34,350 nucleotides of DNA from a virus (taxonomy: Duplodnaviria; Caudoviricetes). Positions 1,072 through 27,113 of this stretch are shown here, piece after piece. The position numbers and the translations under genes were made by a program. How positions within the stretch are numbered: the first letter of the stretch is position 1; each line of letters opens with the position of its first letter. Location: IMG/VR virus record IMGVR_UViG_3300042399_001002, positions 1-34,350 of that record; one strand, given 5' to 3'. Below the pieces are notes generated by a model. The model was given only the letters and a program-made list of their open reading frames with translations. It searched no databases and was not told the origin of the DNA.

Positions 1072-1337
1072 TCCTTAATCTCCAATTTTAACAATTCTCC
1101 TTTTAAGATACTCATTCTTTCTCTATCTAGAACATATTCCAAAGCTCCCTGTACAGTGTTGAATGATTCTAAAACCTGATTACCAATCCAAACGTCTGAT
1201 CTATTATATGCACCAAATTCACTCTCCTGAATCACTCGAACGTTGATGACGAATTCACCCTTAGCTAAGGTAAACGAGTATGCATTCAATTGTGTGAATG
1301 TGAAACCATTCATTGAAATATCCTGAGTCATTTTCAA
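1068..1337 (-). CDS. hypothetical phage protein (89 aa)
   Basis: First ORF of the operon; GAGG SD, TTG start. Confidence 0.7.
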   Translation of the reverse strand: MKMTQDISMNGFTFTQLNAYSFTLAKGEFVINVRVIQESEFGAYNRSDVWIGNQVLESFNTVQGALEYVLDRERMSILKGELLKLEIKE

Positions 1338-1356
1338 TCCTCTTTAAGTTACACTC

Positions 1357-1385
1357 AATATACCACCTCTAATTGAATTTGATAA
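1357..1385 (-). promoter_or_regulatory. sigma70-like promoter (extended -10 TGG-TATATT, weak -35)
   Basis: Reverse complement TTATCA-N17-TATATT with TG extension, just upstream of ORF 1068..1337. Confidence 0.45.
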
Positions 1386-1439
1386 ATAGGTATTACCGAT
1401 TAAAAATAGATATTGATCGATTTCTTGATTTAAAATCAC

Positions 1440-2082
1440 TAACATATTCTTCCAATAGATACATTCTATTAGTGACATTTTATACCAAATAATTATACTT
1501 CTACTATGGTATTTCACCATAGAAATATGGGTATATCTATTGTAAGGAATCGCTTTTTTTCACTAACGATAACAACAACTTACAAAACTTTTGTAAAGTA
1601 ATTTTTTACAAAACCACTTTTACTACTATGATGATGATTGGCATAATGTTACAAATTAGAAAAGTCCGATAATCGTGTAGCTTCACTACACTCTTCTTTA
1701 AAGAGAATGTCCTATTGGGTTAGACACATTCTATTGGGTATTAGATACATTCTATGTGGTAGTTCCTACCACAATAACACTGTTCTACTCAAGCTTCGCT
1801 TGATAATCAGCACACAAAATTGATTAATTTATTGTATTGTTTGTGTAACAAACATTGTTTTTCTTACTAAAAACTATAATTACAATAATTTACAATAACA
1901 ATTATAAATAATTCAATAACTTATAAAGATTATTATAATGATAATTATAATTGATAGTTGTTTTGATCAAAGATCAATAAAAATGATATATTGGGTATTA
2001 TATTTCTATGGTAGTTCCTACCATAATATACATTCTATGTTGGGTATAGAATATTCTATTGGGATGCTTGATTCTATTGGGC
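1440..2082. repeat. origin-like region A: dispersed ACATTCTAT(G)TGGG iterons, TTC/GAA-loop hairpins and an AT-rich core
   Basis: Motif copies near 1461, 1711, 1726, 1747, 2030, 2052, 2071; hairpins 1504-1522, 1755-1773, 1789-1803, 2007-2025; no ORF. Confidence 0.55.
1519..1613 (-). repeat. ~95-bp dispersed element, copy A (inverted relative to the copies at 22.7 and 23.0 kb)
   Basis: 1578-1608 is the exact 31-bp reverse complement of 22994-23024; flanks also align (ATTCCTTACAA, TACCCA). Confidence 0.9.
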
Positions 2083-2359
2083 TGGAGCTGTGTTGGGAGT
2101 AGAAAAGCTAAGGGGAGGAGGGGTGTGGATGGGGTAGGAATGTGGGTGGTTTTAGTAGAATGTTATTTGATTATTGTGATAGTAAGGTGAAAGAATAAGG
2201 TTGATAATTTAATAGTAAGTTAGCCATCACCCCAAAACATATGATAGTTTGAAATTCCACACAGAATTCAATTTAGATATTTGAGGGGTGGAGGATATTT
2301 TAACTTTTCTAAAACAAATGGCAAAAATAAAAAGGTCGGCAGGGGGTATTTTCCTACAG

Positions 2360-2557
2360 TCACTTCCTATATTGTGCTGAACAGATCTCCACTAAAACAT
2401 CATTTGTGTGCTGAATTTGTTTCAACTTTAACGATTGTTGATGGTTAATTTGATTAAGTTGATAGTTTTCACTCTTAATTGTCACTAATGCTGCTAAAGT
2501 TGCAAAAAGTGCAGTAATCAATACAATTATGATAGCAGTTGGAATAATCTTATCCAT
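2360..2557 (-). CDS. small membrane-anchored protein (65 aa)
   Basis: N-terminal hydrophobic helix then a Gln-rich segment; TGG-TATACT promoter-like element upstream at ~2593. Confidence 0.55.
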   Translation of the reverse strand: MDKIIPTAIIIVLITALFATLAALVTIKSENYQLNQINHQQSLKLKQIQHTNDVLVEICSAQYRK

Positions 2558-2795
2558 TGTCTACAACGTTCTCTAAATGATGATGATAACTTAGTATACC
2601 AGAATTTCTAGGGAATTTGCGATTATTTTTCTGAGGGCATCGTAAAAAATTTTAGAGGGGATTTGGGAATTTTTATTTTTTCACCAGTATATCACCCGAT
2701 TTCCCAACCATCTAACTTTCTAAAAGTAAGTGGGGGTCTACCCACCGTGACTGTGCAGTTCTAGTTTTCAGTTACATTGTCATGGCTTTTGTAAA

Positions 2796-3051
2796 TGACA
2801 CGCATTCTCATTTGTAATTGATACGCATTCTCATTTTCAAAGGTAGATGATAATCATTCTCACTATGATTAAAATTCTCATTTAAGAATAATTCTCATTT
2901 TGATTATGATTCTCAATTGTGAACAGTTCTCATTTAAGAACAATTCTCATTTGATAATAATTCTCATTTGATAATAATTATCAGGTGATATAAGTTATTA
3001 AAGAATAACCATTCTCATTTAGGAATGGGTGACAATTGATAACAATTATCA
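2796..3051. repeat. tandem array of 14 Fur-box-like 7-1-7 palindromes (TGATAAT-N-ATT(C/A)TCA), mostly 17-bp period
   Basis: Units start at 2796, 2819, 2848, 2866, 2883, 2901, 2918, 2935, 2952, 2969, (2986), 3003, (3020), 3037; 2969-2983 TGATAATAATTATCA is a perfect 7-1-7 Fur box. Confidence 0.85.
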
Positions 3052-3325
3052 TTTACCAAATTTCCCAACTATCTAAAAAACAGATAGAAAGGATAGTTTT
3101 GATAGAAATATATTAGTTGAAAAAGCTTGACTTTTAAACAAAAAAGAATTGTACAAAGATTTTAACAGACATAAGATAATATCTTTATATAAATCATATA
3201 GTTAGATGAAAAACACAATAAAAACTAACAAGATAGATTATCTATATAAGAAAAAATGATGATAATAATGATAAAAGGTATTGACAAGTGTATAAAATTA
3301 TATTATTTAAAGGAAAAGCATCAAA

Positions 3326-3340
3326 TGATAATCATTCTCA
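3326..3340. promoter_or_regulatory. Fur-box-like palindrome
   Basis: TGATAATCATTCTCA. Confidence 0.7.
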
Positions 3341-3398
3341 TTACCTAACAGTCGCCCACCCTCCGTGTTTGTCTCCCCAGTCTTGCCGTGCTGGTGTC

Positions 3399-3428
3399 AT
3401 TATAGCAAGATTTTTAGTTCATTGTCAA
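3399..3428 (-). promoter_or_regulatory. strong sigma70-like promoter facing the Fur-box array
   Basis: Reverse complement TTGACA-N18-TATAAT with TG extension (TGCTATAAT). Confidence 0.65.
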
Positions 3429-3528
3429 CACAATATCAGAAATTAATTTTCAATCGGATACCTGAATAAAACAGTATAAAATATGATCAATTATCTAACT
3501 CATTTAGATATACATAGTTTTAAATAGT

Positions 3529-3600
3529 TGTCAATAGCCTTAAAACGCTCCAGAATCGCGTATTTTGAACGATAGCCTTTTAAGCTACCTATGCATAGGC
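3529..3600. repeat. ~72-bp dispersed repeat, copy 1 (partner 6961-7033)
   Basis: Shared colinear blocks TGTCAATAG, GCTC, CGCGTATTT, TGCATAGGC. Confidence 0.7.
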
Positions 3601-3711
3601 TGCATGTCTAAAATGGCAACCATGAAAGTCAACCCCATATTTAAACTATTTTCATGAAGTTTTATTGAATCTTTCGATGATGAATTTTTACACCTGTTTT
3701 ATGCTATCAGA

Positions 3712-3726
3712 TGAGAATCATTCTCA
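3712..3726. promoter_or_regulatory. Fur-box-like perfect palindrome
   Basis: TGAGAAT-C-ATTCTCA. Confidence 0.7.
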
Positions 3727-3911
3727 AGTAGGTTCCAGACTTACAAAAATATAATTGACACTATAGCTATTATTGTGCTATTCACACGCGCGTTCTATCT
3801 ATATAAAAAGCATGTACAGTGTTTTGTACTGTTATTTGTGCAAATATCAATATATAAACTTATAAAAAACAGATACTTATGAAATAATCATAAAATAATT
3901 AAAAATAGGTA

Positions 3912-3939
3912 TTGTATTAAATAGTGAATAGTATAGAAT
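3912..3939 (+). promoter_or_regulatory. probable early promoter of the plus-strand island
   Basis: TTGTAT-N16-TAGAAT preceded by an A-rich UP-like tract. Confidence 0.5.
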
Positions 3940-4100
3940 GATTGACATAGGGAGGAGATAAGGCAGAAAGCCTAGCTTACAGTTAGATAGTGACGAGCTA
4001 CTAACATAATTCTTTAAAAACTTGGAAAGGATAGAATCCTTACTATATAGAATCCTAGTTGGTTCTATATGTTGAGTATTTTAACCAAATGGAAAAAGAC

Positions 4101-4289
4101 ATGAAAAAGCAAGTTTTAAAACATGAAAAAGCAGATGATCAATTTACATTGTCAATGTGTCGCGTTGTTCAATATGACAATGAAATAGATGCAGCTTTTA
4201 GAATGCACCTTTTAGATTTAAACGGTAATCGAATCGGCTCAATTTACATGATGCACGACGACGAAAAAGCATTTTACCCAATCAAGTGA
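4101..4289 (+). CDS. hypothetical early protein
   Basis: ORF track 4059..4289; ATG at 4101 with a purine-rich upstream tract is preferred. Confidence 0.65.
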   Translation: MKKQVLKHEKADDQFTLSMCRVVQYDNEIDAAFRMHLLDLNGNRIGSIYMMHDDEKAFYPIK

Positions 4290-4301
4290 GGATCTTAAAA
4301 A

Positions 4302-4493
4302 ATGAATTTCAAAACACATAAGCAATTGTTAAAAAGCCTTAAAGATAGACTAACCAATCAGCAAGGCTTTTATCGTCATTGTGCCAAGCTTGCGCTAGTT
4401 GGTGCATATTCTCAAAATGAATTAAGCGTTCAATTTGAAATATTAAAAGAGCTTGAAAAAGATCTTAATAACTTTTTACAACGTACCAAATAA
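4302..4493 (+). CDS. hypothetical early protein (63 aa)
   Basis: GAGGA SD, ATG start. Confidence 0.7.
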   Translation: MNFKTHKQLLKSLKDRLTNQQGFYRHCAKLALVGAYSQNELSVQFEILKELEKDLNNFLQRTK

Positions 4494-4499
4494 GGGAAA

Positions 4500-4775
4500 A
4501 TGACAATGAATACAAAGCATGAGATTCTGCAAAGTATGGTACAAGCTACCAAAGGCAAGTTTTTTACAATCGTGTTTATCAAGAAAGATAAAACAGATCG
4601 GAAAATGTTGTGCAGATTGGGAGTTAAAAAGCACTTGAAAGGCAATGGCCCATCTACCACCGCACACATTGACAATTATATGACTGTATATGATGTTGAA
4701 AGTAAAGGTTACAGAACGATCAATTTAGATACTGTAAAACATTTTAAATGCGGTCAATTTGAATATAAGGCTTAA
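4500..4775 (+). CDS. DUF2693/WYL_2-like SH3-fold phage protein
   Basis: GKFFTIVFIKKD..RKMLCRLGVKKHLKG...VYDVE.KGYRTIN pattern typical of this family. Confidence 0.65.
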   Translation: MTMNTKHEILQSMVQATKGKFFTIVFIKKDKTDRKMLCRLGVKKHLKGNGPSTTAHIDNYMTVYDVESKGYRTINLDTVKHFKCGQFEYKA

Positions 4776-4779
4776 GATT

Positions 4780-5220
4780 ATGAAATATAAAAGTTATAAA
4801 GGTCGAACCATTGATAAAAGCAAAAAAGTGATGATTTATAAAAATCTTCATAACGGCTTATTTTCAGTCAAGCAAAATGGCCTTGTCGTTGCCCATGTTG
4901 AAAGTTTTTGCATGGATACCGTTTCTTTTAAAGTGAGTGAGGCAGGCAGGCAGCGCGTTTTAAAAGAGAAAAAGAAAAATGTTCATGCTTATATTATCGG
5001 GAAAATATTCGATATTAATAAATTGAACGTTAAAACCGATTTCTTTGCTAGTATAGTAGCCAATCAATCAATTCGATATAATCCATATAAGTCAAATTGT
5101 TTTTATAGACAATATGAGGCTTGCCAATCGGGAATACCGAACAATGTTGAAATCCCTAACATGTACTTAATTGCCCATCATGAGCAAGGGATAGCATTTA
5201 GAATAGTTGAGGATCTTTAA
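4780..5220 (+). CDS. conserved phage early protein
   Basis: YKNLHNGLFSV...VSEAGRQRVLKEKKKNVHA motif common in phage hypotheticals; ATG 4780 preferred over TTG 4759. Confidence 0.75.
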   Translation: MKYKSYKGRTIDKSKKVMIYKNLHNGLFSVKQNGLVVAHVESFCMDTVSFKVSEAGRQRVLKEKKKNVHAYIIGKIFDINKLNVKTDFFASIVANQSIRYNPYKSNCFYRQYEACQSGIPNNVEIPNMYLIAHHEQGIAFRIVEDL

Positions 5221-5499
5221 ATGACTGTTAAACAATCTTATATACATATAGCCGTTAACCATAAAACGAAAATAGTTGAATATGTTAAGGTTACGGCATA
5301 TCACGACAAGGCAGCTTTTCAGGTACTTGACAAGGCATTGATTAAATTGGGCCATAATCATTTTACATTGGTTAGCTATCCCGTCGAATTGAAAAAGAGA
5401 CTCACAAAGCCTTTTGAATGTCTAGTGAGTTTTAAGCATAGTGATGATTTAAACACTAAGCACTTTTTAACTGAGTTTATAGCGGATCACAATTTATAA
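5221..5499 (+). CDS. hypothetical early protein (92 aa)
   Basis: GAGGA SD, abuts previous stop. Confidence 0.7.
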   Translation: MTVKQSYIHIAVNHKTKIVEYVKVTAYHDKAAFQVLDKALIKLGHNHFTLVSYPVELKKRLTKPFECLVSFKHSDDLNTKHFLTEFIADHNL

Positions 5500-5557
5500 A
5501 ATCTTTTATCTGATGGATTCTAAATGGATTCATCTAATAAACGATTTAAATGCATAT

Positions 5558-5573
5558 CGTTCCACGTGGAACA
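5558..5573. promoter_or_regulatory. parS-like centromere site (ParB-binding palindrome)
   Basis: CGTTCCACGTGGAACA, 15/16 to TGTTCCACGTGGAACA; intergenic. Confidence 0.75.
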
Positions 5574-5588
5574 TGAAAGGAAAAAGTT

Positions 5589-6317
5589 ATGAAAGTTACA
5601 TTGAATGATAAAGTTTTTGCATTAGTTGCTAAAATGCAAGCTGAAACAGATAGCAGCGTGAAGCTATCCAATACAAGCAAACTAGGCGTTAAATCATGGA
5701 GTCTACAGGCTTTAAATACTTGTCCCGCTTCAATTGGTGCTGATGGTGAATTAGTTGATGCATGTAAGGGATGTTATGCCACTGCCGGACATTATCGCTA
5801 TGCAACGGTACGCGCTCCACGTGAATTCAATAGACAAGCATGGGAGCAAGATAGTTTTGTAAGTGACTTTGTAAAGGCTTTAAATAAGGAAAGATTTTTC
5901 AGATGGTATGATTCCGGTGACATGTATAACATTAAACTAGCTGAAAAAATGCTTTTAATTATGCAAGCTACGCCACATGTTAACCATTGGCTACCGACTA
6001 GAATGTATAAATTCAAAAAGTTTCATTCTGTGATTGAACAAATGGCAGCCTTGCCAAATGTAGCGGTTAGATTGTCAAGCGATAGCATTGTAGGCGAATT
6101 GGTTAAAAGTAGCGTTTCAGATCTTAATTCTACCATTATCCCAGAGGATAAAATTGATTCATATAACGGCTTTATTTGTCAAGCGTTTTATCAGGATGGA
6201 AAATGTTTAGATTGTACGGCCTGCTATGATAAGACTGTAAAAACAGTTGCATATGTTGGGCATGGCTTGACAATGAAGAAAAAGCAAAAAAACTTAATTA
6301 ATGTTGTGAGTGTATAA
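5589..6317 (+). CDS. gp88-like Cys-rich protein, possibly Fe-S/radical-SAM-related (242 aa)
   Basis: TCP...ACKGCYA, FRWYDSGD, HWLPTR and C-terminal C..(x8)CLDCTAC motifs of the mycobacteriophage gp88-like family. Confidence 0.7.
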   Translation: MKVTLNDKVFALVAKMQAETDSSVKLSNTSKLGVKSWSLQALNTCPASIGADGELVDACKGCYATAGHYRYATVRAPREFNRQAWEQDSFVSDFVKALNKERFFRWYDSGDMYNIKLAEKMLLIMQATPHVNHWLPTRMYKFKKFHSVIEQMAALPNVAVRLSSDSIVGELVKSSVSDLNSTIIPEDKIDSYNGFICQAFYQDGKCLDCTACYDKTVKTVAYVGHGLTMKKKQKNLINVVSV

Positions 6318-6318
6318 C

Positions 6319-6525
6319 ATGGCTAACAGATTCTTTTTTGCCTTGGGTAATTCCCAAGGCTTACAAGGTACACAATACTATCAGGCTAGAGTTAAAAGCA
6401 TTGAACAATTGGAAAGACTTGTAAAACTTCATTATCCTAAAAACAAAGTATTTTTAAAAATGGAACGTGAAGGATCTAGCAGCTTGTATTGGATATTGGG
6501 AGATAAGAATGATTCTCATCTATAA
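6319..6525 (+). CDS. hypothetical early protein
   Basis: ORF track 6310..6525; ATG 6319 follows the previous stop. Confidence 0.6.
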   Translation: MANRFFFALGNSQGLQGTQYYQARVKSIEQLERLVKLHYPKNKVFLKMEREGSSSLYWILGDKNDSHL

Positions 6526-6727
6526 ATATCAGCGTCCCAACATGGATAAGGGCACTTGTCAAGCTCACTTTTTCAAGAATGGAAAGTATATTAGATCATC
6601 GGACATTCACCCATATTCTGATAATATGATCGAGTTTCTCACTAAGGGCCATAGCAAATTTGCTTTAGTCAATGTCATGAGTAAAACAGATTTAAGTTAT
6701 CAAGAATTCTCAAAAGTCAAGGCTTAA
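6509..6727 (+). CDS. hypothetical early protein
   Basis: GGGAG SD before ATG 6509; start overlaps a Fur-like box at 6504-6518. Confidence 0.65.
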   Translation: MILIYKYQRPNMDKGTCQAHFFKNGKYIRSSDIHPYSDNMIEFLTKGHSKFALVNVMSKTDLSYQEFSKVKA

Positions 6728-6729
6728 TT

Positions 6730-6906
6730 ATGAAAATGTTAAAAAATGATTATTATGTTGATGCGGATAGCATTCGAGTATTTGATAATGAGATTCATTA
6801 TCATTATTGTGAACGTCTTGTCATTGAGCCATTGCAGCAAGATGAACAAGGGCAATTTGTGGTGCTGAATAATATTAAACATTATGTAAATGATAAAACC
6901 GATTAA
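6730..6906 (+). CDS. hypothetical early protein (58 aa, below track cutoff)
   Basis: Hand translation MKMLKNDYYVDADSIRVFDNEIHYHY...NDKTD*; fills the operon gap. Confidence 0.6.
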   Translation: MKMLKNDYYVDADSIRVFDNEIHYHYCERLVIEPLQQDEQGQFVVLNNIKHYVNDKTD

Positions 6907-6960
6907 TATTGATAATTGATCGGATCTTTAAAAAGTAGCTAAAAAGCCTGTTTTCTTAAA

Positions 6961-7033
6961 TGTCAATAGGCTTTAAATGCTCATATAAGCGCGTATTTAA
7001 GCGTTTAAACTTATCAGGTACTAGTGCATAGGC
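6961..7033. repeat. ~72-bp dispersed repeat, copy 2 (partner 3529-3600)
   Basis: Colinear shared blocks with copy 1. Confidence 0.7.
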
Positions 7034-7053
7034 AAGGGTCGAATCGTTGAAAT

Positions 7054-7111
7054 TTGACATTGTTTTAGAAGTATGCTAGGCATTGAATAGCATAAATGAG
7101 AATAGTTATCA
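7054..7111 (+). promoter_or_regulatory. possible promoter with a downstream Fur-like box
   Basis: TTGACA 7054-7059, TGC-TAGGCA at 17-bp spacing (imperfect -10); TGAGAATAGTTATCA at 7097-7111. Confidence 0.5.
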
Positions 7112-7129
7112 AATAGCAGGTATTATCAA

Positions 7130-7345
7130 ATGAAAGATTTTAAAGTTAACGATAAAGTAATTGCAGTCAATCCACCGATCAACATGTCAATTGAGAATAA
7201 TTCTCATTATTTAATAGTTGAAATTGAAAACTTTAAATTTTATAACTTTGGATTAAATGGAATTCACTATAAGTTAAAATGCTTAAAAACTAATAGAATT
7301 CTAGGCTGGTTTAAGGGTACTTATTTGGAGGTTAAAAAATCATGA
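7130..7345 (+). CDS. hypothetical early protein (71 aa)
   Basis: AGGT SD; contains embedded Fur-like palindrome 7192-7206. Confidence 0.65.
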   Translation: MKDFKVNDKVIAVNPPINMSIENNSHYLIVEIENFKFYNFGLNGIHYKLKCLKTNRILGWFKGTYLEVKKS

Positions 7346-7524
7346 AAGTATTGTTTTTCCTATTTGTTGTAACAAGTGACAATCACGGTTTTGAAACAAT
7401 GTCAAGATATAACGATGTTGAATATGTAACAAAATCGCAATGTGAAAAAGCATTAAAAAAGTCAAAAGTCAAGAAAAATCAAGCTTTGTTTTGTGGTGAA
7501 GATTACTTATATTTTAAAAAGTGA
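7342..7524 (+). CDS. small possibly exported protein (60 aa)
   Basis: GGAGG SD; hydrophobic N-terminus, Cys pair. Confidence 0.65.
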   Translation: MKVLFFLFVVTSDNHGFETMSRYNDVEYVTKSQCEKALKKSKVKKNQALFCGEDYLYFKK

Positions 7525-7528
7525 GAAA

Positions 7529-7699
7529 ATGAAAATGAGCACATTTTTACTAGTTGTAACAATCGTGATAAATGGACAAATTGAACATAGAGTAATCTCA
7601 GAACATAGATCTTTATTTTCTTGCCATGTAGAAAAAGCACAACATAGCACTAACACGGCCATTAAATTTGAATGCATAAAAAAGGATAACAAAGCATGA
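7529..7699 (+). CDS. small possibly exported protein
   Basis: ORF track 7493..7699, ATG 7529 preferred; hydrophobic N-terminus, Cys pair. Confidence 0.6.
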   Translation: MKMSTFLLVVTIVINGQIEHRVISEHRSLFSCHVEKAQHSTNTAIKFECIKKDNKA

Positions 7700-7860
7700 A
7701 AAAGTTAACAATTCAACAAATTATAGACTTGTTTAACATGGGCCGAACAATAATCTTATTCAATTCTAGTGGCACTATATCATGCCATAAGAACAATATA
7801 ACAGAACGTCAATTGATAGAGTATATCAATAAAAATGATAAGAATGGCCGGATCTTATAA
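7696..7860 (+). CDS. hypothetical early protein (54 aa, below track cutoff)
   Basis: ATGA overlap, AAGGA SD; MKKLTIQQIIDLFNMGR...NGRIL*. Confidence 0.6.
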   Translation: MKKLTIQQIIDLFNMGRTIILFNSSGTISCHKNNITERQLIEYINKNDKNGRIL

Positions 7861-7870
7861 CGGCCTTTTT
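7846..7870 (+). terminator. intrinsic terminator ending the early island
   Basis: GGCCG-N10-CGGCC followed by TTTTT. Confidence 0.65.
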
Positions 7871-7883
7871 ATTTATCTATTAA

Positions 7884-8130
7884 TAGTAATGATTATCATT
7901 ATAATTATCATTTACATTCTTTGTCTTAATAATAACCTTTCTCATTTGATAGCGGTTATCATAATACCTATTTATATATTATGGTACGTGCCCCATTATA
8001 GTGCAATCTAATTATCCGATTATATATAGTTTTAATCATAACTTTTAGTTTGATGTTTCATAACTTGTTTTTATAAGTGCCCGATGTCTGATAGTCGGCT
8101 ATGTGTAAATGAAAATGCTAATGATTCTCA
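7884..8130. repeat. second cluster of Fur-box-like palindromes
   Basis: Units at 7884, 7896, 7930, 7947, 8116; 7885-7903 matches the 19-bp Fur consensus at 16/19. Confidence 0.7.
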
Positions 8131-8256
8131 TTTCGGCATAGGATATTTTGATTCCGAACCCCAGTCGAACATACCAAACCCCACACCATGTTGAACACTA
8201 CCACACATTTATCCCACTCCCCAGATTCATCACTTTCCCCATAATGATATTTCCAT

Positions 8257-8290
8257 AAAAAACACCCCTACCCCCGAAAGGATAGAAGTG
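8257..8290 (-). terminator. intrinsic terminator ending the minus-strand block
   Basis: Reverse complement CACTTCTATCCT-TTCG-GGGGTAGGGGTG-TTTTTT (12-bp stem with GU pairs, UUCG loop). Confidence 0.7.
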
Positions 8291-8357
8291 CATATGAAAA
8301 ATTATTTTTTAAGAAATTCTCAGCCATTAAAATTTCCTCAGAAGTCATGATGGTAAG

Positions 8358-8516
8358 TTATGATAGTAGGTAAATCACAAATATCATTGCTAAAATGTAA
8401 AATGAACACCACATAAAACGCTTGAAGAACACGACACCTTCTTCATTACCAACTAAACGTTCTGTTGCACTCTTCTTGCACCCACATTCACACTCACGAT
8501 GTTTATCATTAAACAT
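8358..8516 (-). CDS. small membrane protein (52 aa)
   Basis: GGAGG SD; MFNDKHRECECGC... with a C-terminal hydrophobic helix (hand translation). Confidence 0.6.
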   Translation of the reverse strand: MFNDKHRECECGCKKSATERLVGNEEGVVFFKRFMWCSFYILAMIFVIYLLS

Positions 8517-8562
8517 TTCAAACCTCCACCCTAATTAGTGCATTCTCAACCACTAAAACTCT

Positions 8563-8856
8563 TTACAGATTATCTTCAAAGTAATAACTTTCAACCATTT
8601 TAACTTTACGATAACATCTGGTAGCTTTAACTACAGAACCTGACGTGTGCCACACAATAACACCATCACTAATATAACTGGTTTTATATGTGAAGTAATC
8701 ACCATTATCGCTACCAATAATAAAGTTTGTTGTTCCTGATCGAACAAACTCATTGGTTTGATTTACTCTCACTACGTGATAACCATTCTCTTCCAACCAA
8801 TCTTGTGATGGGTATCCATAATCATCATCGATTTCAACCTGTATTGAATCCACCAT
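8563..8856 (-). CDS. hypothetical protein (97 aa)
   Basis: AGGAG SD. Confidence 0.7.
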   Translation of the reverse strand: MVDSIQVEIDDDYGYPSQDWLEENGYHVVRVNQTNEFVRSGTTNFIIGSDNGDYFTYKTSYISDGVIVWHTSGSVVKATRCYRKVKMVESYYFEDNL

Positions 8857-8866
8857 ATCTTCTCCT

Positions 8867-9028
8867 TTATTTATTCAACCACATCACCGTGATTACTAAC
8901 ATCGCCACAAGGACAACATTGAGTATGATCCTAAAACTACCTCGCAATAGATTATCTGTGTACTTTGTTGCACTGGTATCACTTAAACAATATGGATCAT
9001 AACCACAATTATCACATCGTTTTTTCAT
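8867..9028 (-). CDS. small membrane protein (53 aa)
   Basis: ATGA overlap; MKKRCDNCGYDPYC... with a C-terminal hydrophobic helix (hand translation). Confidence 0.6.
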   Translation of the reverse strand: MKKRCDNCGYDPYCLSDTSATKYTDNLLRGSFRIILNVVLVAMLVITVMWLNK

Positions 9029-9213
9029 TTAACTACATTCTCCGCAATAGCTTGACATAATAGGTAATAGTTATAAAACCCTAATGAGATGATAAAGATC
9101 ATGATAAAAATTGCACTACCAATAAGTGTATATTTTACTAACTTATCATCTCTTATAGAATATCCCTTCCTAGTCAAAGGAGGAGAGGGTGGAGGTGGAA
9201 TCTCCTCTCTCAT
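9025..9213 (-). CDS. small membrane protein, Pro-rich N-terminus (62 aa)
   Basis: PPPPSPP then a transmembrane-like helix; coupled overlaps. Confidence 0.65.
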   Translation of the reverse strand: MREEIPPPPSPPLTRKGYSIRDDKLVKYTLIGSAIFIMIFIISLGFYNYYLLCQAIAENVVK

Positions 9214-10148
9214 TTACGACACTCCACATCCTTTCTACTACGAATGATCATGATGTAATTCTCAATCTCATAGTCTTTATAGATTACATTCTCATGTACC
9301 AGTTTGCAGAAGTTCATGAAGCTGTTTGCATCTACAATTGGTGCTGCTGGTAGGTTGTTGTATTGCAGATTAAGGTCATCATATTCAACTTTCTTAAGCA
9401 GTATACCATCCACCCAATCACGTAACTCTTGATCATGTTTAGATCGCTTAATAGCATCTAACTTCATGAAATGTTGCCAGTGAGTCTTTTTAGGATCTTC
9501 ACACTTCACAACATCTTTATCTTTAATGAATTCCCACATCGCATCGTATTTGTATTTTTCATAAGACCAATCTTCAAACTTGTAAACAGTGTCACTACCA
9601 AAGATGTAATATTCACCATCATTCACTGAATGCCAACCATCTCGAAATCGAGTGTATTCACTACGAAATTGAAGACTCAATTTTTCCAAAACGAGTTGCT
9701 TGTTAGACTTCCGTAATTCTCCATTATTTATAAAGTCTTGTAACAACTCCCAAGCACTCAAATGGCTCAAATTCTCAGGTATTGAAATGAACATCTCAGG
9801 AACCGCAGCTAATTCACCGAAGGTGTGTTCAAACGTACATCTATTAGGTGTTAAATAAATGCGAGTATTACAACCCTCAATACGGAAGCTGCTATATCGA
9901 CCAAAACAATTAGATATCTTGTGAGTCAAACCCCTGTAAACAAGAACATCACCTTTCGATGTAGACTCTACATACAATGCTTGATATTTAGCAACAAGCT
10001 CAGTGATACCAGATTCACTTAAAGGAAGATATTTACGTTCTGGTTGAACAACCGTTTCTATTGGTTTAGAAGTAGTTTCAACAATCACATCTATAGGTCT
10101 TGGACGTGGTTCATTACAACCACCAAATAAATCATGCCACCAACCCAT
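9210..10148 (-). CDS. hypothetical protein (312 aa)
   Basis: Long ORF, GGAG SD; no recognised motif. Confidence 0.8.
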   Translation of the reverse strand: MGWWHDLFGGCNEPRPRPIDVIVETTSKPIETVVQPERKYLPLSESGITELVAKYQALYVESTSKGDVLVYRGLTHKISNCFGRYSSFRIEGCNTRIYLTPNRCTFEHTFGELAAVPEMFISIPENLSHLSAWELLQDFINNGELRKSNKQLVLEKLSLQFRSEYTRFRDGWHSVNDGEYYIFGSDTVYKFEDWSYEKYKYDAMWEFIKDKDVVKCEDPKKTHWQHFMKLDAIKRSKHDQELRDWVDGILLKKVEYDDLNLQYNNLPAAPIVDANSFMNFCKLVHENVIYKDYEIENYIMIIRSRKDVECRK

Positions 10149-22697: not shown

Positions 22698-23087
22698 TTA
22701 TAAAAAATTACTTTACAAATATTTTTTAATCTATTGATTTAATTAAGGAAAAAATGACATTCCTTACAAAGTATCTACCCACTATTTTCAATAGAATTAG
22801 CACATCAAAATAGAACATAATTATAATGATTATTACTATAATCAATTATCATAATAGAATGTCCTATCTTAATAAGAATGTCCTTCTTTGATTAGAACGT
22901 TCTAATTTAATAATTATGATAATAGTAATTATAATAATAGTAACATTCTATCTAAATAAGATGTTCTCTTTTGAGTGCTGAAATTTAATTTTATAAAAAA
23001 TTACTTTACAAAAGTTTTGTAAGTCACTGTATCTATTGAGGAAAAAATACGATTCCTTACAAAAGAACTACCCACTATTTCTATAGA
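22698..23087. repeat. origin-like region B: two direct copies of the ~95-bp element around AGAATGT/ACATTCT iterons in an AT-rich core
   Basis: Copies at 22698-22796 and 22990-23087; AGAATGTCCTAT shared with 1704-1715; lies at the strand switch. Confidence 0.65.
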
Positions 23088-23137
23088 AAATTTAACTGTT
23101 AGTCCAAGTAGTTTACATAAATACAACAATGATTATA

Positions 23138-23569: not shown

Positions 23570-23644
23570 GGTGACTTTAGTGTAATGGTTAGCACCTCTC
23601 CCTGTGAAGGAGCAAGTCAGGGTTCGAGTCCCGAAGTCACACCA
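23570..23644 (+). tRNA. tRNA-His (GTG)
   Basis: Cloverleaf, encoded G-1, TTCGAGT T-loop, CCA. Confidence 0.9.
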
Positions 23645-23649
23645 AATAC

Positions 23650-23726
23650 GGATCGTTAGCTCAATTGGTTAGAGCAAGACACTTTTAATGTCGAGGTTCG
23701 GGGTTCAAGTCCCTGACGATCCACCA
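23650..23726 (+). tRNA. tRNA-Lys (TTT)
   Basis: Cloverleaf, loop CTTTTAA, CCA. Confidence 0.93.
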
Positions 23727-23782
23727 AATTCTGTAGACCTTGCATTATTTAGGTCAAGAATAAACCCTCAATATAGAGGTTT

Positions 23783-23858
23783 GGGAAAGTAACTCAGTTG
23801 GTAGAGTGGTTACTTGAAGCGTAACAGGTCAGAGGTTCAAATCCTCTCTTTCCCACCA
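23783..23858 (+). tRNA. tRNA-Phe (GAA)
   Basis: Cloverleaf, loop TTGAAGC, CCA. Confidence 0.9.
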
Positions 23859-23860
23859 AT

Positions 23861-23934
23861 TGAAGATTAGTTAAAAAGTATAACAGTGAACTGATAATTC
23901 ACAGTCGATGGAGCGTTACCATCATCTTCAACCA
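23861..23934 (+). tRNA. tRNA-Ile (GAT), non-canonical D and T loops
   Basis: TGAAGAT/ATCTTCA acceptor, GTGAA-CTGATAA-TTCAC, T-loop AGCGTTA, CCA. Confidence 0.8.
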
Positions 23935-23936
23935 AC

Positions 23937-24012
23937 AGTTCCTTAGCTCAATTGGCAGAGCACCTCCCTTACATGGAGTAGGTTATTGGTTCGACTCCAA
24001 TAGGAACTACCA
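23937..24012 (+). tRNA. tRNA-Val (TAC)
   Basis: Cloverleaf, loop CTTACAT, CCA. Confidence 0.92.
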
Positions 24013-24064
24013 TATTCAATTAGATCACAAAATGAACACTTAGAAAAATATTTGAAAATAATAG

Positions 24065-24092
24065 TTGACAAATAGAAATTCCGTGTTATCTT
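24065..24092 (+). promoter_or_regulatory. internal promoter of the tRNA cluster
   Basis: TTGACAAAT...TGT-TATCTT, 16-bp spacer. Confidence 0.7.
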
Positions 24093-24113
24093 AATGATCT
24101 AGAAACAAACAAT

Positions 24114-24188
24114 GCTCTATTCGTCTAATGGCTAGGATTTCTCCCTTTCAAGGAGAAGAAGAGGGATCGAAACCCTCATAGAGTACCA
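24114..24188 (+). tRNA. tRNA-Glu (TTC)
   Basis: Cloverleaf, loop CTTTCAA, T-loop ATCGAAA, CCA. Confidence 0.9.
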
Positions 24189-24197
24189 AATTATAAT

Positions 24198-24273
24198 AGC
24201 GAGAAGTGATATTGGGTTCACAGCAAGGCTCATAACCTTGAAGATGTCGGTTCGATTCCGATTCTCGCTACCA
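24198..24273 (+). tRNA. tRNA-Met (CAT), subtype uncertain
   Basis: Cloverleaf, CAAGG-CTCATAA-CCTTG, CCA. Confidence 0.85.
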
Positions 24274-24286
24274 AGATTATTTTTGA

Positions 24287-24362
24287 TTACCATAATCTAA
24301 AGGCTCGAAGAGACGGTCTGCAACATCGTTCTTACTGGGTTGAAGTCCCAGATGGTAATCCA
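24287..24362 (+). tRNA. tRNA-Cys (GCA)
   Basis: TTACCAT/ATGGTAA acceptor, U73, loop CTGCAAC, T-loop TTGAAGT, CCA. Confidence 0.8.
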
Positions 24363-24462
24363 AAGTGATTTATTAAATAAGAATACGAGTAAGGGTGAAA
24401 AGAGCCACTGGTTGCAAACATGCTTGATCTGATCCAAAAGTATTCTTAGTTAATAAATTAAT

Positions 24463-24536
24463 GCGTGATTGGTATAATGGTATTATGTCTGGCTTCCACC
24501 CAGAAGACCACAGTTCGATTCTGTGATCCCGCACCA
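24463..24536 (+). tRNA. tRNA-Gly (TCC)
   Basis: Cloverleaf, loop CTTCCAC, CCA. Confidence 0.9.
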
Positions 24537-24553
24537 GTTTTTAAAAAGTTTAT

Positions 24554-24629
24554 TCCCATGTAGCTCAATTGGTTGAGCAGCAGACTGTTAATCTGTTGGT
24601 TGTTGGTTCGAGTCCAGCCTTGGGAGCCA
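24554..24629 (+). tRNA. tRNA-Asn (GTT)
   Basis: Cloverleaf, loop CTGTTAA, GCCA. Confidence 0.92.
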
Positions 24630-24634
24630 TTTAT

Positions 24635-24729
24635 GTAAGTAGGGTAGCTGTTGGGTGGCTACATCGGGCTGTAACCCCGACCCCTGATTAATGATCACAT
24701 CGTTGGTTCGATTCCAACTACTTACACCA
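24635..24729 (+). tRNA. tRNA-Tyr (GTA)
   Basis: Cloverleaf with long variable region, loop CTGTAAC, ACCA. Confidence 0.85.
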
Positions 24730-24850
24730 TTTTCAGCTTCATCTCTGAATGACTGATGGAAAGACATCTATGAGCATGATTGAATGTGTGAAGGATACAA
24801 GGGTTGCTCCTTCCTTGTATGGTGGACGATACCTAACCACCCAAGATTAT

Positions 24851-24939
24851 AGAGAGTAAACTGTACAGGTGTACGGAACACCCTGCTAAGGTGATTGATC
24901 GTGAAAACGGTTTAGTTTCGATTACTATGCTCTCTGCCA
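24851..24939 (+). tRNA. tRNA-Ser (GCT)
   Basis: Long variable arm, loop CTGCTAA, GCCA. Confidence 0.85.
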
Positions 24940-25029
24940 TGTACCCTTTGTGGACTTGAAGATTTCTTCGTGGTATCGCTACCTTAGAAGGCATCGCAGT
25001 TAGGCTTCTGTTTAAAAAGTCACTTATAT

Positions 25030-25122
25030 GGATTGTAGGGCGAAGCGGTTCGCAACTGGTCTTGAAAACCAGCCCATTGGGTTAGTAGCTCGGTGATGGT
25101 TCGACTCCATTACTTTCCTCCA
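25030..25122 (+). tRNA. tRNA-Ser (TGA)
   Basis: Long variable arm, loop CTTGAAA, CCA; two U-U mismatches in the acceptor stem. Confidence 0.8.
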
Positions 25123-25199
25123 AATTTTAGAATTAACCCTTCTTCCCTACTTCGGTAGTTCTAGTCGGGTAATAGGTAGCATATAACCTATAGATAAAC

Positions 25200-25882
25200 T
25201 GCAAAACAGTATAAAGTTGAGACTGATAATTTCAGCGTAATAAACCCAAGAGGTTTGTTATCAAGTATGCAAGCAAGTTATCAATTGAGTCCAGAGCTAA
25301 TCGGTGAGGATGAGGTTGGGAATGTAATGTTCCTGAGTCGAGAGACAATAAGAGAACTTGTAGGTTTAGAGTGAAGACGATTATCAAGTCGTAACGCTTT
25401 ACACCAGTGTTAAAGATGCATCTAATAGACAACAGGTGGTGCTGAGTCTGGCAGGTTGATACTACCAATTTCAACAATGTATTCTTGAAACATAGTGCAC
25501 GATAAAGCACAGTGACCAGTACAGTATTGATGAGTTCAAAAGATTTGTTATCTGTAGTGAAACCACTGGTTATATCAATAACAATACACTTCGATTTAAG
25601 GTAATTAAGTTCAAAAGTGTTTCACACATTAAAGTGAAAGGTGCTTACATAGTAATGGGTTGTCCATTGCACATATGACCCGAAAGGTTGTGTGTAATTT
25701 TATGAAATGATTGTGTCTGGTAGGCATACTAGCGTAGTTTGAGTAATAAGAGAGTAGCTTTGATGTCTAAGATTGGTTGACTATATTAACCAGCACTGAT
25801 CATTACAACTTAAAGGGTTGTGGATAAGGAAGGAATAAATAATCTTCTAAAGATGGTCGCAATAACGTATAATCTCAGCGTT
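25200..25882 (+). ncRNA. large structured ncRNA, GOLLD-like (5' boundary approximate)
   Basis: ~770-nt tRNA-free gap with no plus-strand ORF in the track, many hairpins with GU pairs, and a 3' end GTGGATAA...AATAA...AAAGA...ACGTATAATCTCAGCGT recalled as GOLLD-type. Confidence 0.6.
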
Positions 25883-25896
25883 GTTAATTTTTAAAT

Positions 25897-25972
25897 CAGT
25901 GTGTGACTGGAAAGGTTTCAGTCTTCGTTTGGAACGAAGAATATGTAGGTTCGAGTCCTACCACACTGACCA
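25897..25972 (+). tRNA. tRNA-Pro (TGG)
   Basis: Cloverleaf, loop TTTGGAA, C1-G72, ACCA. Confidence 0.9.
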
Positions 25973-26112
25973 AATTTATAAATTAAATGTATCAACCAAC
26001 CCAGATTAAAAGGTAGTTGCAGGATACAGAGGTTTTTTTAATGAGATCGAGACTCAGGGAGGGGTAATACCCTGCTATCAACACCTTGGTATATTTAATT
26101 TATGAAGTTTAT

Positions 26113-26188
26113 AGCCTGTTAGCTCAATCGGGAGAGCGTTGCACTGTCACTGCAAAGGTAGCGAGATCGAAACTCGTACAGGCTGCCA
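26113..26188 (+). tRNA. tRNA-Asp (GTC)
   Basis: Cloverleaf, loop CTGTCAC, GCCA. Confidence 0.92.
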
Positions 26189-26384
26189 AATGTTCACAAC
26201 CTAGTATGATGTGAATGATAGTCTTAGCGGATCGTCAGACGTACATTGCGGATATGGTTAAGCTTAAGGCTTCCTTGTGAAAGTAGTGATCTGGTCTAGA
26301 ACGGATTGCGATTATGTGTGACAGCTATTAGCTCACCGTTGAAAGAATACGGACAAGTCGGCTCAACTGTAAAACACACTTAAT

Positions 26385-26462
26385 GCTCAGATGAAGGAAA
26401 TTGGTAAACCTTTCTGTCTTAGAAACAGAAGCCTGTGAGTTCGAGTCTCACTCTGAGTACCA
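26385..26462 (+). tRNA. tRNA-Leu (TAG), short variable loop
   Basis: Cloverleaf, loop CTTAGAA, ACCA. Confidence 0.88.
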
Positions 26463-26468
26463 ATTTAT

Positions 26469-26545
26469 GCGCCTATAGTTCAATTGGATAGAGCATCTGC
26501 CTTCTAAGCAGAGAGTTTCAGGTTCGAGTCCTGATGGGCGCACCA
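26469..26545 (+). tRNA. tRNA-Arg (TCT)
   Basis: Cloverleaf, loop CTTCTAA, CCA. Confidence 0.93.
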
Positions 26546-26659
26546 AGATTTTAAAATAGAGTAAACATAGCAGATTTAGTATGTGGTAGGAAAACGATGA
26601 GATACCTCACACCACAGTAAAGGTTCTTCTTCCGTTGTTTATTCTCTTTTATGATTATT

Positions 26660-26734
26660 GCTGGATTAATATAAAGGCTATTATGCTTGTTTTGTAATCA
26701 AGTTATGGCGGTTCGAGTCCGTCATTCAGCACCA
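26660..26734 (+). tRNA. tRNA-Thr (TGT)
   Basis: Cloverleaf, loop TTTGTAA, ACCA. Confidence 0.9.
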
Positions 26735-26813
26735 AATGATGTCGTAGTGATTCGACGTTAAACTCACTACAATTACCCCGTGTCGTGGTGATGGACATTA
26801 AACATCACCCAAT

Positions 26814-26888
26814 AAGTTGATGTTGTAACGGTAACATGCTGGCCTCCAAAGCCATGCGTTCTGGGTTCGAATCCTAGTCGGCTTGCCA
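26814..26888 (+). tRNA. tRNA-Trp (CCA)
   Basis: Cloverleaf, loop CTCCAAA, GCCA. Confidence 0.88.
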
Positions 26889-26952
26889 AGTTTAAAAAGT
26901 TTATTGCACCTTACGGAAGTGATCAAATAACCTTCTGGAGCTGCAATTTAAT

Positions 26953-27027
26953 TGTCGTGTGGTGTAAAGGTTAGCACTTTGGAATTTGACTCCAACAGTT
27001 ACCGTTCGAATCGGTACATGACTGCCA
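26953..27027 (+). tRNA. tRNA-Gln (TTG)
   Basis: Cloverleaf, loop ATTTGAC, GCCA. Confidence 0.9.
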
Positions 27028-27034
27028 TTTTAAT

Positions 27035-27113
27035 AGTCCTGTAACTCATAGTTGGTTAGAGTACCATGCTCATAACGTGGAGGATTAGGGTTCGACTCCC
27101 TAGAGGACTACCA
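27035..27113 (+). tRNA. tRNA-CAT (Met or lysidine-modified Ile2)
   Basis: Cloverleaf, loop CTCATAA, ACCA. Confidence 0.85.

Follow-up and report, generated by a model that had tools for sequence, protein, structure and literature searches.

Host Fur operators take the form of 19-bp 9-1-9 or 15-bp 7-1-7 sites, and the clusters that they form in E. coli hold up to 14 predicted sites, overlap at offsets of 3 or 6 bp, reach a length of about 140 bp and lie over promoters in 83% of cases (accessible part of PMC2189734). Two of the strong E. coli clusters are placed before nohA and nohB (same part of PMC2189734).

No published description of Fur arrays in phage terminal repeats was found in a search that missed most subscription journals and supplements. 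The genes nohA and nohB are prophage terminase-subunit genes. Multicopy Fur boxes on plasmids titrate Fur, which is the basis of the laboratory assay FURTA, and our searches yielded no natural phage example of FURTA-like titration. FURTA is mentioned in the accessible part of PMC3055841, and the portion of PMC11672702 open to us gives no Fur copy number. Palindromes also occur in the injection-stop region of phage T5, where the authors propose DnaA boxes (10.1101/866236, as far as its accessible text goes). The word "iron" is absent from that T5 paper, and "Fur" is absent from PMC10644984 and 10.64898/2026.04.02.716235.

The locus described here lies in one virus record of 34,350 bp (the window, by which we mean the whole stretch of DNA analysed), which is about 36% complete and encodes 18 tRNAs, a terminase, a portal and a head protease. 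Judged by sequence comparison, the window is part of a myovirus genome, and its closest isolate is the Acinetobacter johnsonii phage vB_AciJM_313 (AciJM_313; 72.9% identity over the structural block, 79.3% in the terminase), and because this is the nearest isolate we infer an Acinetobacter host and a lytic lifestyle. The 18 tRNA genes occupy 23570-27113, with gaps of about 1.2 kb (24730-25896). An element of about 95 bp is present in three copies that are 77-84% alike (1519-1613 on the minus strand, 22698-22796 and 22989-23088 on the plus strand); it is conserved in the sister phages, stands before gene or tRNA blocks and is a candidate phage promoter or origin element. Around the Fur-box array itself, 1521-4058 is largely free of genes, and a block of small plus-strand genes follows downstream:

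2796..3051, no strand assigned: Fur-box array; 14 phased 15-bp units, 12 of them credible predicted 7-1-7 Fur operators
4059..7860, plus strand: small early-type gene block, pointing away from the array

The block includes WYL_2 at 4500, an L5 gp82-like gene at 4783 and GP88/DUF7227 at 5589, while nine of its 13 genes have no Pfam match and one has a weak match below the cut-off. The IMG/VR relatives of GP88 (the best 80 of 587) are all at most 59% identical. Rfam searches of 1300-4200 gave only one chance snoRNA match below the cut-off, and plasmid BLAST gave short, chance-level matches only.

All 14 unit starts listed in an earlier, sequence-only reading of this DNA were recovered at their coordinates, and so was the 17-bp phase that it described: start-to-start spacings are 23 and 29 bp for the first two steps and then, from 2848 on, 18, 17, 18 and eight times 17 bp, a period of 17-18 bp. 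Unit 2969, which it had called perfect, agrees exactly with the 7-1-7 consensus. Sites were scored with a symmetric 19-bp matrix, with a flat background, made independently of the phage from 17 E. coli Fur sites that have footprint or gel-shift evidence (positions as in Table 4, in the accessible part of PMC2189734). These training sites score 17.0-28.2 bits when each is left out in turn, and all bit scores given here refer to this E. coli matrix, the phage's own host being inferred only. The units at 2796, 2819, 2848, 2866 and 2883 score 11.5, 15.3, 22.1, 16.2 and 20.5 bits; those at 2901, 2918, 2935, 2952 and 2969 score 17.2, 15.5, 17.8, 24.9 and 15.1 bits; and those at 2986, 3003, 3020 and 3037 score 6.3, 19.0, -4.1 and 25.8 bits. 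Eleven of the 14 units therefore reach at least 15 bits, and seven reach at least 17 bits, the range of the host sites. Of the 14 Fur-box-like palindromes first claimed, 12 are credible, since 2986 and 3020 fall far down the scale with 6.3 and -4.1 bits; these two are not boxes but spacers that keep the phase. The array is not a product of chance: 2790-3056 holds 12 sites of at least 10 bits, whereas 1000 dinucleotide shuffles gave 0.4 such sites on average and never more than 4.

The dyad symmetry of the units, said earlier to be kept, is partial. It holds for the right half-sites (91 of 98 letters match and 11 of 14 are perfect), but the left half-sites are degenerate, with 77 of 98 letters matching and 3 of 14 perfect, where composition would lead one to expect about 2.5 matches in 7. 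The claim that these are not slippage repeats was half wrong. TRF also reports the array as a tandem repeat (period 17, 6.5 copies, 77% matches), and related strains differ by whole units; the units do vary, as that claim had held, and their mean likeness is only 66%, yet the phase is held. At 10.5 bp per turn, a 17-bp step rotates neighbouring sites by 223 degrees, compared with 206 degrees for the classical 6-bp offset, a geometry that would let neighbouring Fur dimers sit on opposite faces of the DNA and would permit close packing. Folding of the array DNA into a hairpin was considered and rejected (z -3.4, with an ensemble frequency of 0 and a centroid of +6.9 kcal/mol); the z value follows from the palindromes and is therefore no evidence for a hairpin role.

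The proposed identity of the units as Fur boxes is supported by E. coli host sites as well as by the matrix scores, as far as predicted sites can be judged. When one mismatch is allowed, the array consensus matches 13 positions in E. coli K-12 and the reversed control matches one, a search that is not fully independent because the array consensus is close to the textbook box. Twelve of the 13 matches are strong Fur clusters of PMC2189734 Table 4, and 10 have been footprinted or gel-shifted, according to the accessible part of that source. The remaining match (L122 record, NC_000913.3 189582-189598) is absent from the published strong-cluster table, in the form open to us. The predicted A. baumannii boxes (PMC3055841 Table 1, accessible part) have the same core and T-rich flanks, in a comparison made by eye only. 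As had been noted earlier, no Fur-like gene is in view: PF01475 is found in none of three records (the window, a 99%-complete sister and AciJM_313), so that by this search, which is limited to the Fur fold, the phage has no cognate Fur-family protein. The binder of the predicted operators is thus, with high probability, the host's own Fur. Zur and PerR were set aside as binders on the basis of their consensus and distribution.

Immediately before the array lies a short sequence that allows the same spot to be found in other phages:

2756..2779, no strand assigned: 24-bp anchor just before the array; invariant, identical in three sister phages

The sisters that share the anchor are AciJM_313, an IMG/VR genome (L095) and a metagenome contig (L094), and each of the three has one perfect Fur box that starts within about 35 bp of it. 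These boxes score 24.9 bits in AciJM_313, where the box is at 6970, 24.9 in L095 and 25.5 in L094, the last with different letters and at a different offset. Farther out, AM24, Bestia, D'Alembert, B9 and Aci01-1 have 0-1 near-perfect site each and no cluster, and the element is therefore dispensable in the wider group. In all four other sequencing runs, among the matches listed, the arrays of close strains are shorter by 69 or 51 bp and stay in register: X11 lacks 69 bp, equal to four units, and the net loss in X8, X12 and X16 is 51 bp, equal to three units. Every strain seen among those matches retains at least 10 units in register. Another contig of X8 continues without a break over 2794-2973. 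Six substitutions among the strain differences listed shift the scores by -3.1 to +2.3 bits. The ancestral state that these comparisons point to is one box behind the 24-bp anchor, which would have been amplified in the lineage of the window phage.

The array and the early genes appear to belong to a terminal repeat:

2226..8192, no strand assigned: likely long terminal repeat of about 5,967 bp, holding early genes; left end tentative

The right end is well supported. The records of AciJM_313 and B9 both end 43 bases after the same 12-letter motif, and this shared motif places the right end here at 8192. On the left, sister homology sets in abruptly at 2226, where a motif resembles the opening bases of the B9 repeat, and the left end is tentatively placed there. 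With ends at 2226 and 8192 the repeat measures about 5,967 bp, and the array would sit about 570-825 bp inside its left end. The terminal redundancy of related records is 6,437 bp in AciJM_313, 4,915 in B9, 5,719 in D'Alembert and 1,184 in Aci01-1, and AM24 and Bestia have none. The deposited AciJM_313 repeat (6,437 bp) breaks off within the first early gene and fails to reach the AciJM_313 box by about 530 bp, so that this deposit, read literally, would put the array just outside the repeat; both readings of the left end put the array at the repeat's edge. In that record (PX050566.1; L001, L002) the deposited repeat ends 210 bp inside CDS_165 and, judged by the end motif, is perhaps about 1.1 kb short. 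Contig depths are mixed, with X1 and X3 implying 5.7 and 4.7 kb doubled and X11 giving a ratio of 1.16 against about 1.65 expected (a hand estimate); as depth is also not a copy number, we do not count them as evidence for the repeat. A G-rich tract lies just outside the likely left end (2060-2160) and a C-rich tract around the right end (8160-8290), and the same motif of 8-9 letters recurs near both likely ends (2293 and 8140).

The array is accompanied by further boxes, and by promoters, in the same block:

3326..3340, no strand assigned: single Fur-type box, 28.8 bits, the window maximum
3399..3428, minus strand: sigma-70 promoter, perfect consensus with extended -10, 12/12 match
3712..3726, no strand assigned: single Fur-type box, 16.3 bits, perfect core
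6504..7206, no strand assigned: Fur-type boxes inside early ORFs, starting at 6504, 6789 and 7192 (17.7, 25.2 and 25.3 bits)
7054..7111, plus strand: promoter-like element (7054-7082, by eye) with Fur-type box (7097-7111, 22.2 bits)
7884..8130, no strand assigned: right-edge boxes at 7884/7890 (6-bp offset pair), 7930/7947 (17-bp pair) and 8116

Nine sites of at least 17 bits, overlooked in the sequence-only reading, lie between 3326 and 8130, and box 8116 ends 62 bp before the likely right end of the repeat. In all, 16 of the 17 window sites of at least 17 bits fall in 2848-8130, within the early block of about 6 kb.

The layout of a Fur-repressed promoter, with a box overlapping or directly following the promoter, is absent for the array and present, by eye, for box 7097. 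Beneath the array there is no strong promoter, only matches of 9-10 of 12 positions at background level (44 found versus 41.3 in shuffles). The box at 7097-7111 stands between its promoter-like element and a start codon at 7130, and the layout is kept in AciJM_313, where the box is at 3232, four core letters have changed and the score is 21.4 bits. In other words, this promoter-proximal box is conserved by score and not by sequence. Two tiny genes follow the boxed promoter (7342-7699), with a hydrophobic N-terminus and two cysteines and with no family found; the idea that gene 7342 encodes a receptor-blocking protein was dropped (no Pfam match, Atlas scores at most 0.86). The minus-strand promoter at 3399..3428 is the sole 12-of-12 match among 44 candidates in 1400-8500, and it is directed toward the likely genome end, with box 3326 and the array in its path. 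Between it and the 24-bp anchor there is no minus-strand ORF of at least 40 aa, RNA folding of the minus strand over 3250-3400 gives no structure (z +1.56), and the promoter was not found in the sisters by eye.

A search with the array detected Fur-type clusters in phi92-like phages, Phapecoctavirus, T5-like phages, ICP1 and jumbo Klebsiella phages. The two terminal repeats of SPC35 contain all 12 of its near-perfect sites, and five of six near-perfect boxes are at 8572-9065, near the inner edge of the first-step-transfer repeat. Of the nine near-perfect sites of Muenster, four fall 792-1092 bp into its annotated repeat. Five sites of phi92 make up an array at the edge of the early block, on its promoter side, and boxes occur within 300 bp of the genome ends. 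Across IMG/VR, two perfect boxes stand 16-29 bp apart at 43 loci in 28 sequence groups, and the spacings of the array (17, 23 and 29) account for 17 of the 33 spacings counted at group level (with a crude uniform null, p ~5e-5); spacings of 24 and 26 are also common among these pairs, and a three-unit 17-bp pattern has no match in IMG/VR. Box pairs at 17 bp are found in 19 viral contigs, within 300 bp of the contig end in 15 and beside a terminase gene in three, and the 15 are probably one related group. These fifteen (L100-L107, L109, L111, L112, L114-L116 and L118) are small phage contigs, mostly of 16-18 kb, of which L100 is phi29-like by Pfam. In other phages, Fur-type boxes that follow the 17-bp phase adjoin terminase genes at L110:4739-5032, L113:1939-2045 and L117:5000-5031, and those of L110 also lie next to a GP88 gene like the one at window position 5589.

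Arrays with a 17-bp period occur in bacteria as well. At seven intergenic loci of two Bacteroidales genomes (G002 and G003; L096-L099 and L119-L121) there are rows of about 6-15 Fur-type boxes, one upstream of an operon with Fur-family, ferritin-like and AhpC genes, one downstream of FeFe-hydrogenase genes and five beside unrelated genes; they are possible chromosomal decoys for Fur or PerR. The pattern is in 0 of 200 other genomes of the same phylum. With only one of seven loci upstream of an iron operon, the view that such host arrays mark iron promoters was rejected, and we keep these loci only as a sign that the 17-bp phase recurs.

We hypothesize, tentatively and at somewhat less than an even chance, that the array is a Fur-coated end segment that acts in cis near the left end of the likely terminal repeat. 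The sisters have one site at the same spot, so Fur would be expected to coat the stretch and act locally and not to be soaked up; the fixed position, the single box of the sisters and the confinement to the repeat all argue for a local role, and the clusters of SPC35, phi92 and Muenster likewise stand at edges of repeats or early blocks. Under this hypothesis, iron-loaded host Fur would bind the row of operators near the genome end, and the bound row would form a roadblock separating that end from the early promoters, one of them the perfect promoter at 3428, whose transcription would cross the array. Single boxes such as 7097 would repress early promoters, and the earliest steps of infection would thereby be tuned to host iron. 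A Fur filament on phage DNA, which the sequence-only reading had mentioned as a minor alternative, appears to fit better than its main proposal, in which replicated phage DNA acts in trans as a sponge that titrates Fe-Fur and derepresses host iron uptake. An E. coli cell contains 5,000-10,000 Fur monomers, and with 11-20 sites per genome and 100-200 copies the phage would offer 1,100-8,000 dimer sites, on the order of that pool; virion DNA would carry twice the dose because of the terminal repeat, and amplification from one box fits a dose effect. However, by arithmetic there are at most about 40 dimer sites per genome at entry, against thousands of Fur molecules per cell, so a sponge is feasible only after replication. 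Together with the three sisters, whose single box at a fixed position is not something that a sponge needs, and the five distant relatives that have no cluster, this makes titration in trans an unlikely explanation and not the best reading of the array; T5-like phages, moreover, keep their clusters although the host DNA is rapidly degraded (10.64898/2026.04.02.716235, in its accessible part).

Position at the likely end of the genome could also mean a role in DNA entry, with Fur on the first or last part of the repeat ratcheting the DNA in or marking a pause, as in the injection-stop region of T5. The SPC35 boxes near the inner edge of the first-step-transfer repeat would suit such a device, and the edge array and end boxes of phi92 resemble 2796-3051 and 8116 here, but T5-type A1, A2 and dmp were found neither in the window (about 36% complete) nor in all of AciJM_313 nor in the fetched sister stretches (tblastn, E<=0.01), and we regard an entry role as quite unlikely. 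One functional box might instead have been expanded by slippage into a minisatellite whose extra copies are nearly neutral, which would account for the TRF repeat, for the copy-number differences among strains, for the sufficiency of one box in the sisters and for the scattered intergenic arrays of Bacteroidales, six of seven of which are not upstream of an iron operon. Such drift is hard to reconcile with units that are only 66% alike on average yet in phase, with strains that keep at least 10 units in register among the matches listed, and with nine more strong sites in the same block; it is in our estimate decidedly improbable. The better preservation of right than of left half-sites, in an AT-rich non-coding setting by the likely genome end where GC skew changes sign near 2,000, would fit directional iterons for a phage replication or packaging protein that resemble Fur boxes by descent. 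Yet only one palindrome stands at this place in the sisters, phages from other groups carry the motif too, the three records have no Fur-family gene and the skew follows gene strand, which together leave iterons very improbable.

A broader proposal, which is doubtful at present, is that several groups of virulent phages dock host Fur as a packed filament by the genome end, on a lattice of 17, 23 and 29 bp, as an iron switch on entry or first transcription, and that the stop-region palindromes of T5 have the same explanation. If the filament reading is true, the window phage captures the construction of the element, which has one box in the sisters and 10-14 in the strains. If a host metal-sensing repressor does act on the end of a virulent phage's genome, the phage would have a novel means of reading the nutrient state of the host without encoding a sensor, and iron-dependent early infection, if true, bears on phage performance in iron-poor settings. 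Host Fur would also be a testable factor for the unexplained T5 palindromes, and the natural series of one box in the cultured AciJM_313, 10-11 in close strains and 14 here permits a dose test.

How, then, does the array compare with what has been described? It shares the site type of the E. coli clusters, with scores in the range of footprinted sites (accessible part of PMC2189734). Unlike those clusters, again on the accessible part of that source, it consists of 12 non-overlapping sites at 17-29 bp over 256 bp of gene-free DNA with no strong promoter. The A. baumannii boxes each stand alone at a promoter in front of iron-uptake genes, and they are predictions drawn from expression data, not footprints (accessible part of PMC3055841). 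With FURTA it has in common that there would be many boxes per cell once the phage genome replicates. Like the T5 stop region, as far as the accessible text of 10.1101/866236 describes it, it lies in a non-coding, repeat-rich stretch at the edge of a likely long terminal repeat, and the stop-type region of the T5-like SPC35 holds near-perfect Fur-type boxes; in contrast to T5, no homologue of A1, A2 or dmp was found in the window and the sister sequences searched, and the 17-bp phase here is tighter. Fur operators and their clusters are well described; the phage array is real, and its units are very likely host Fur operators.
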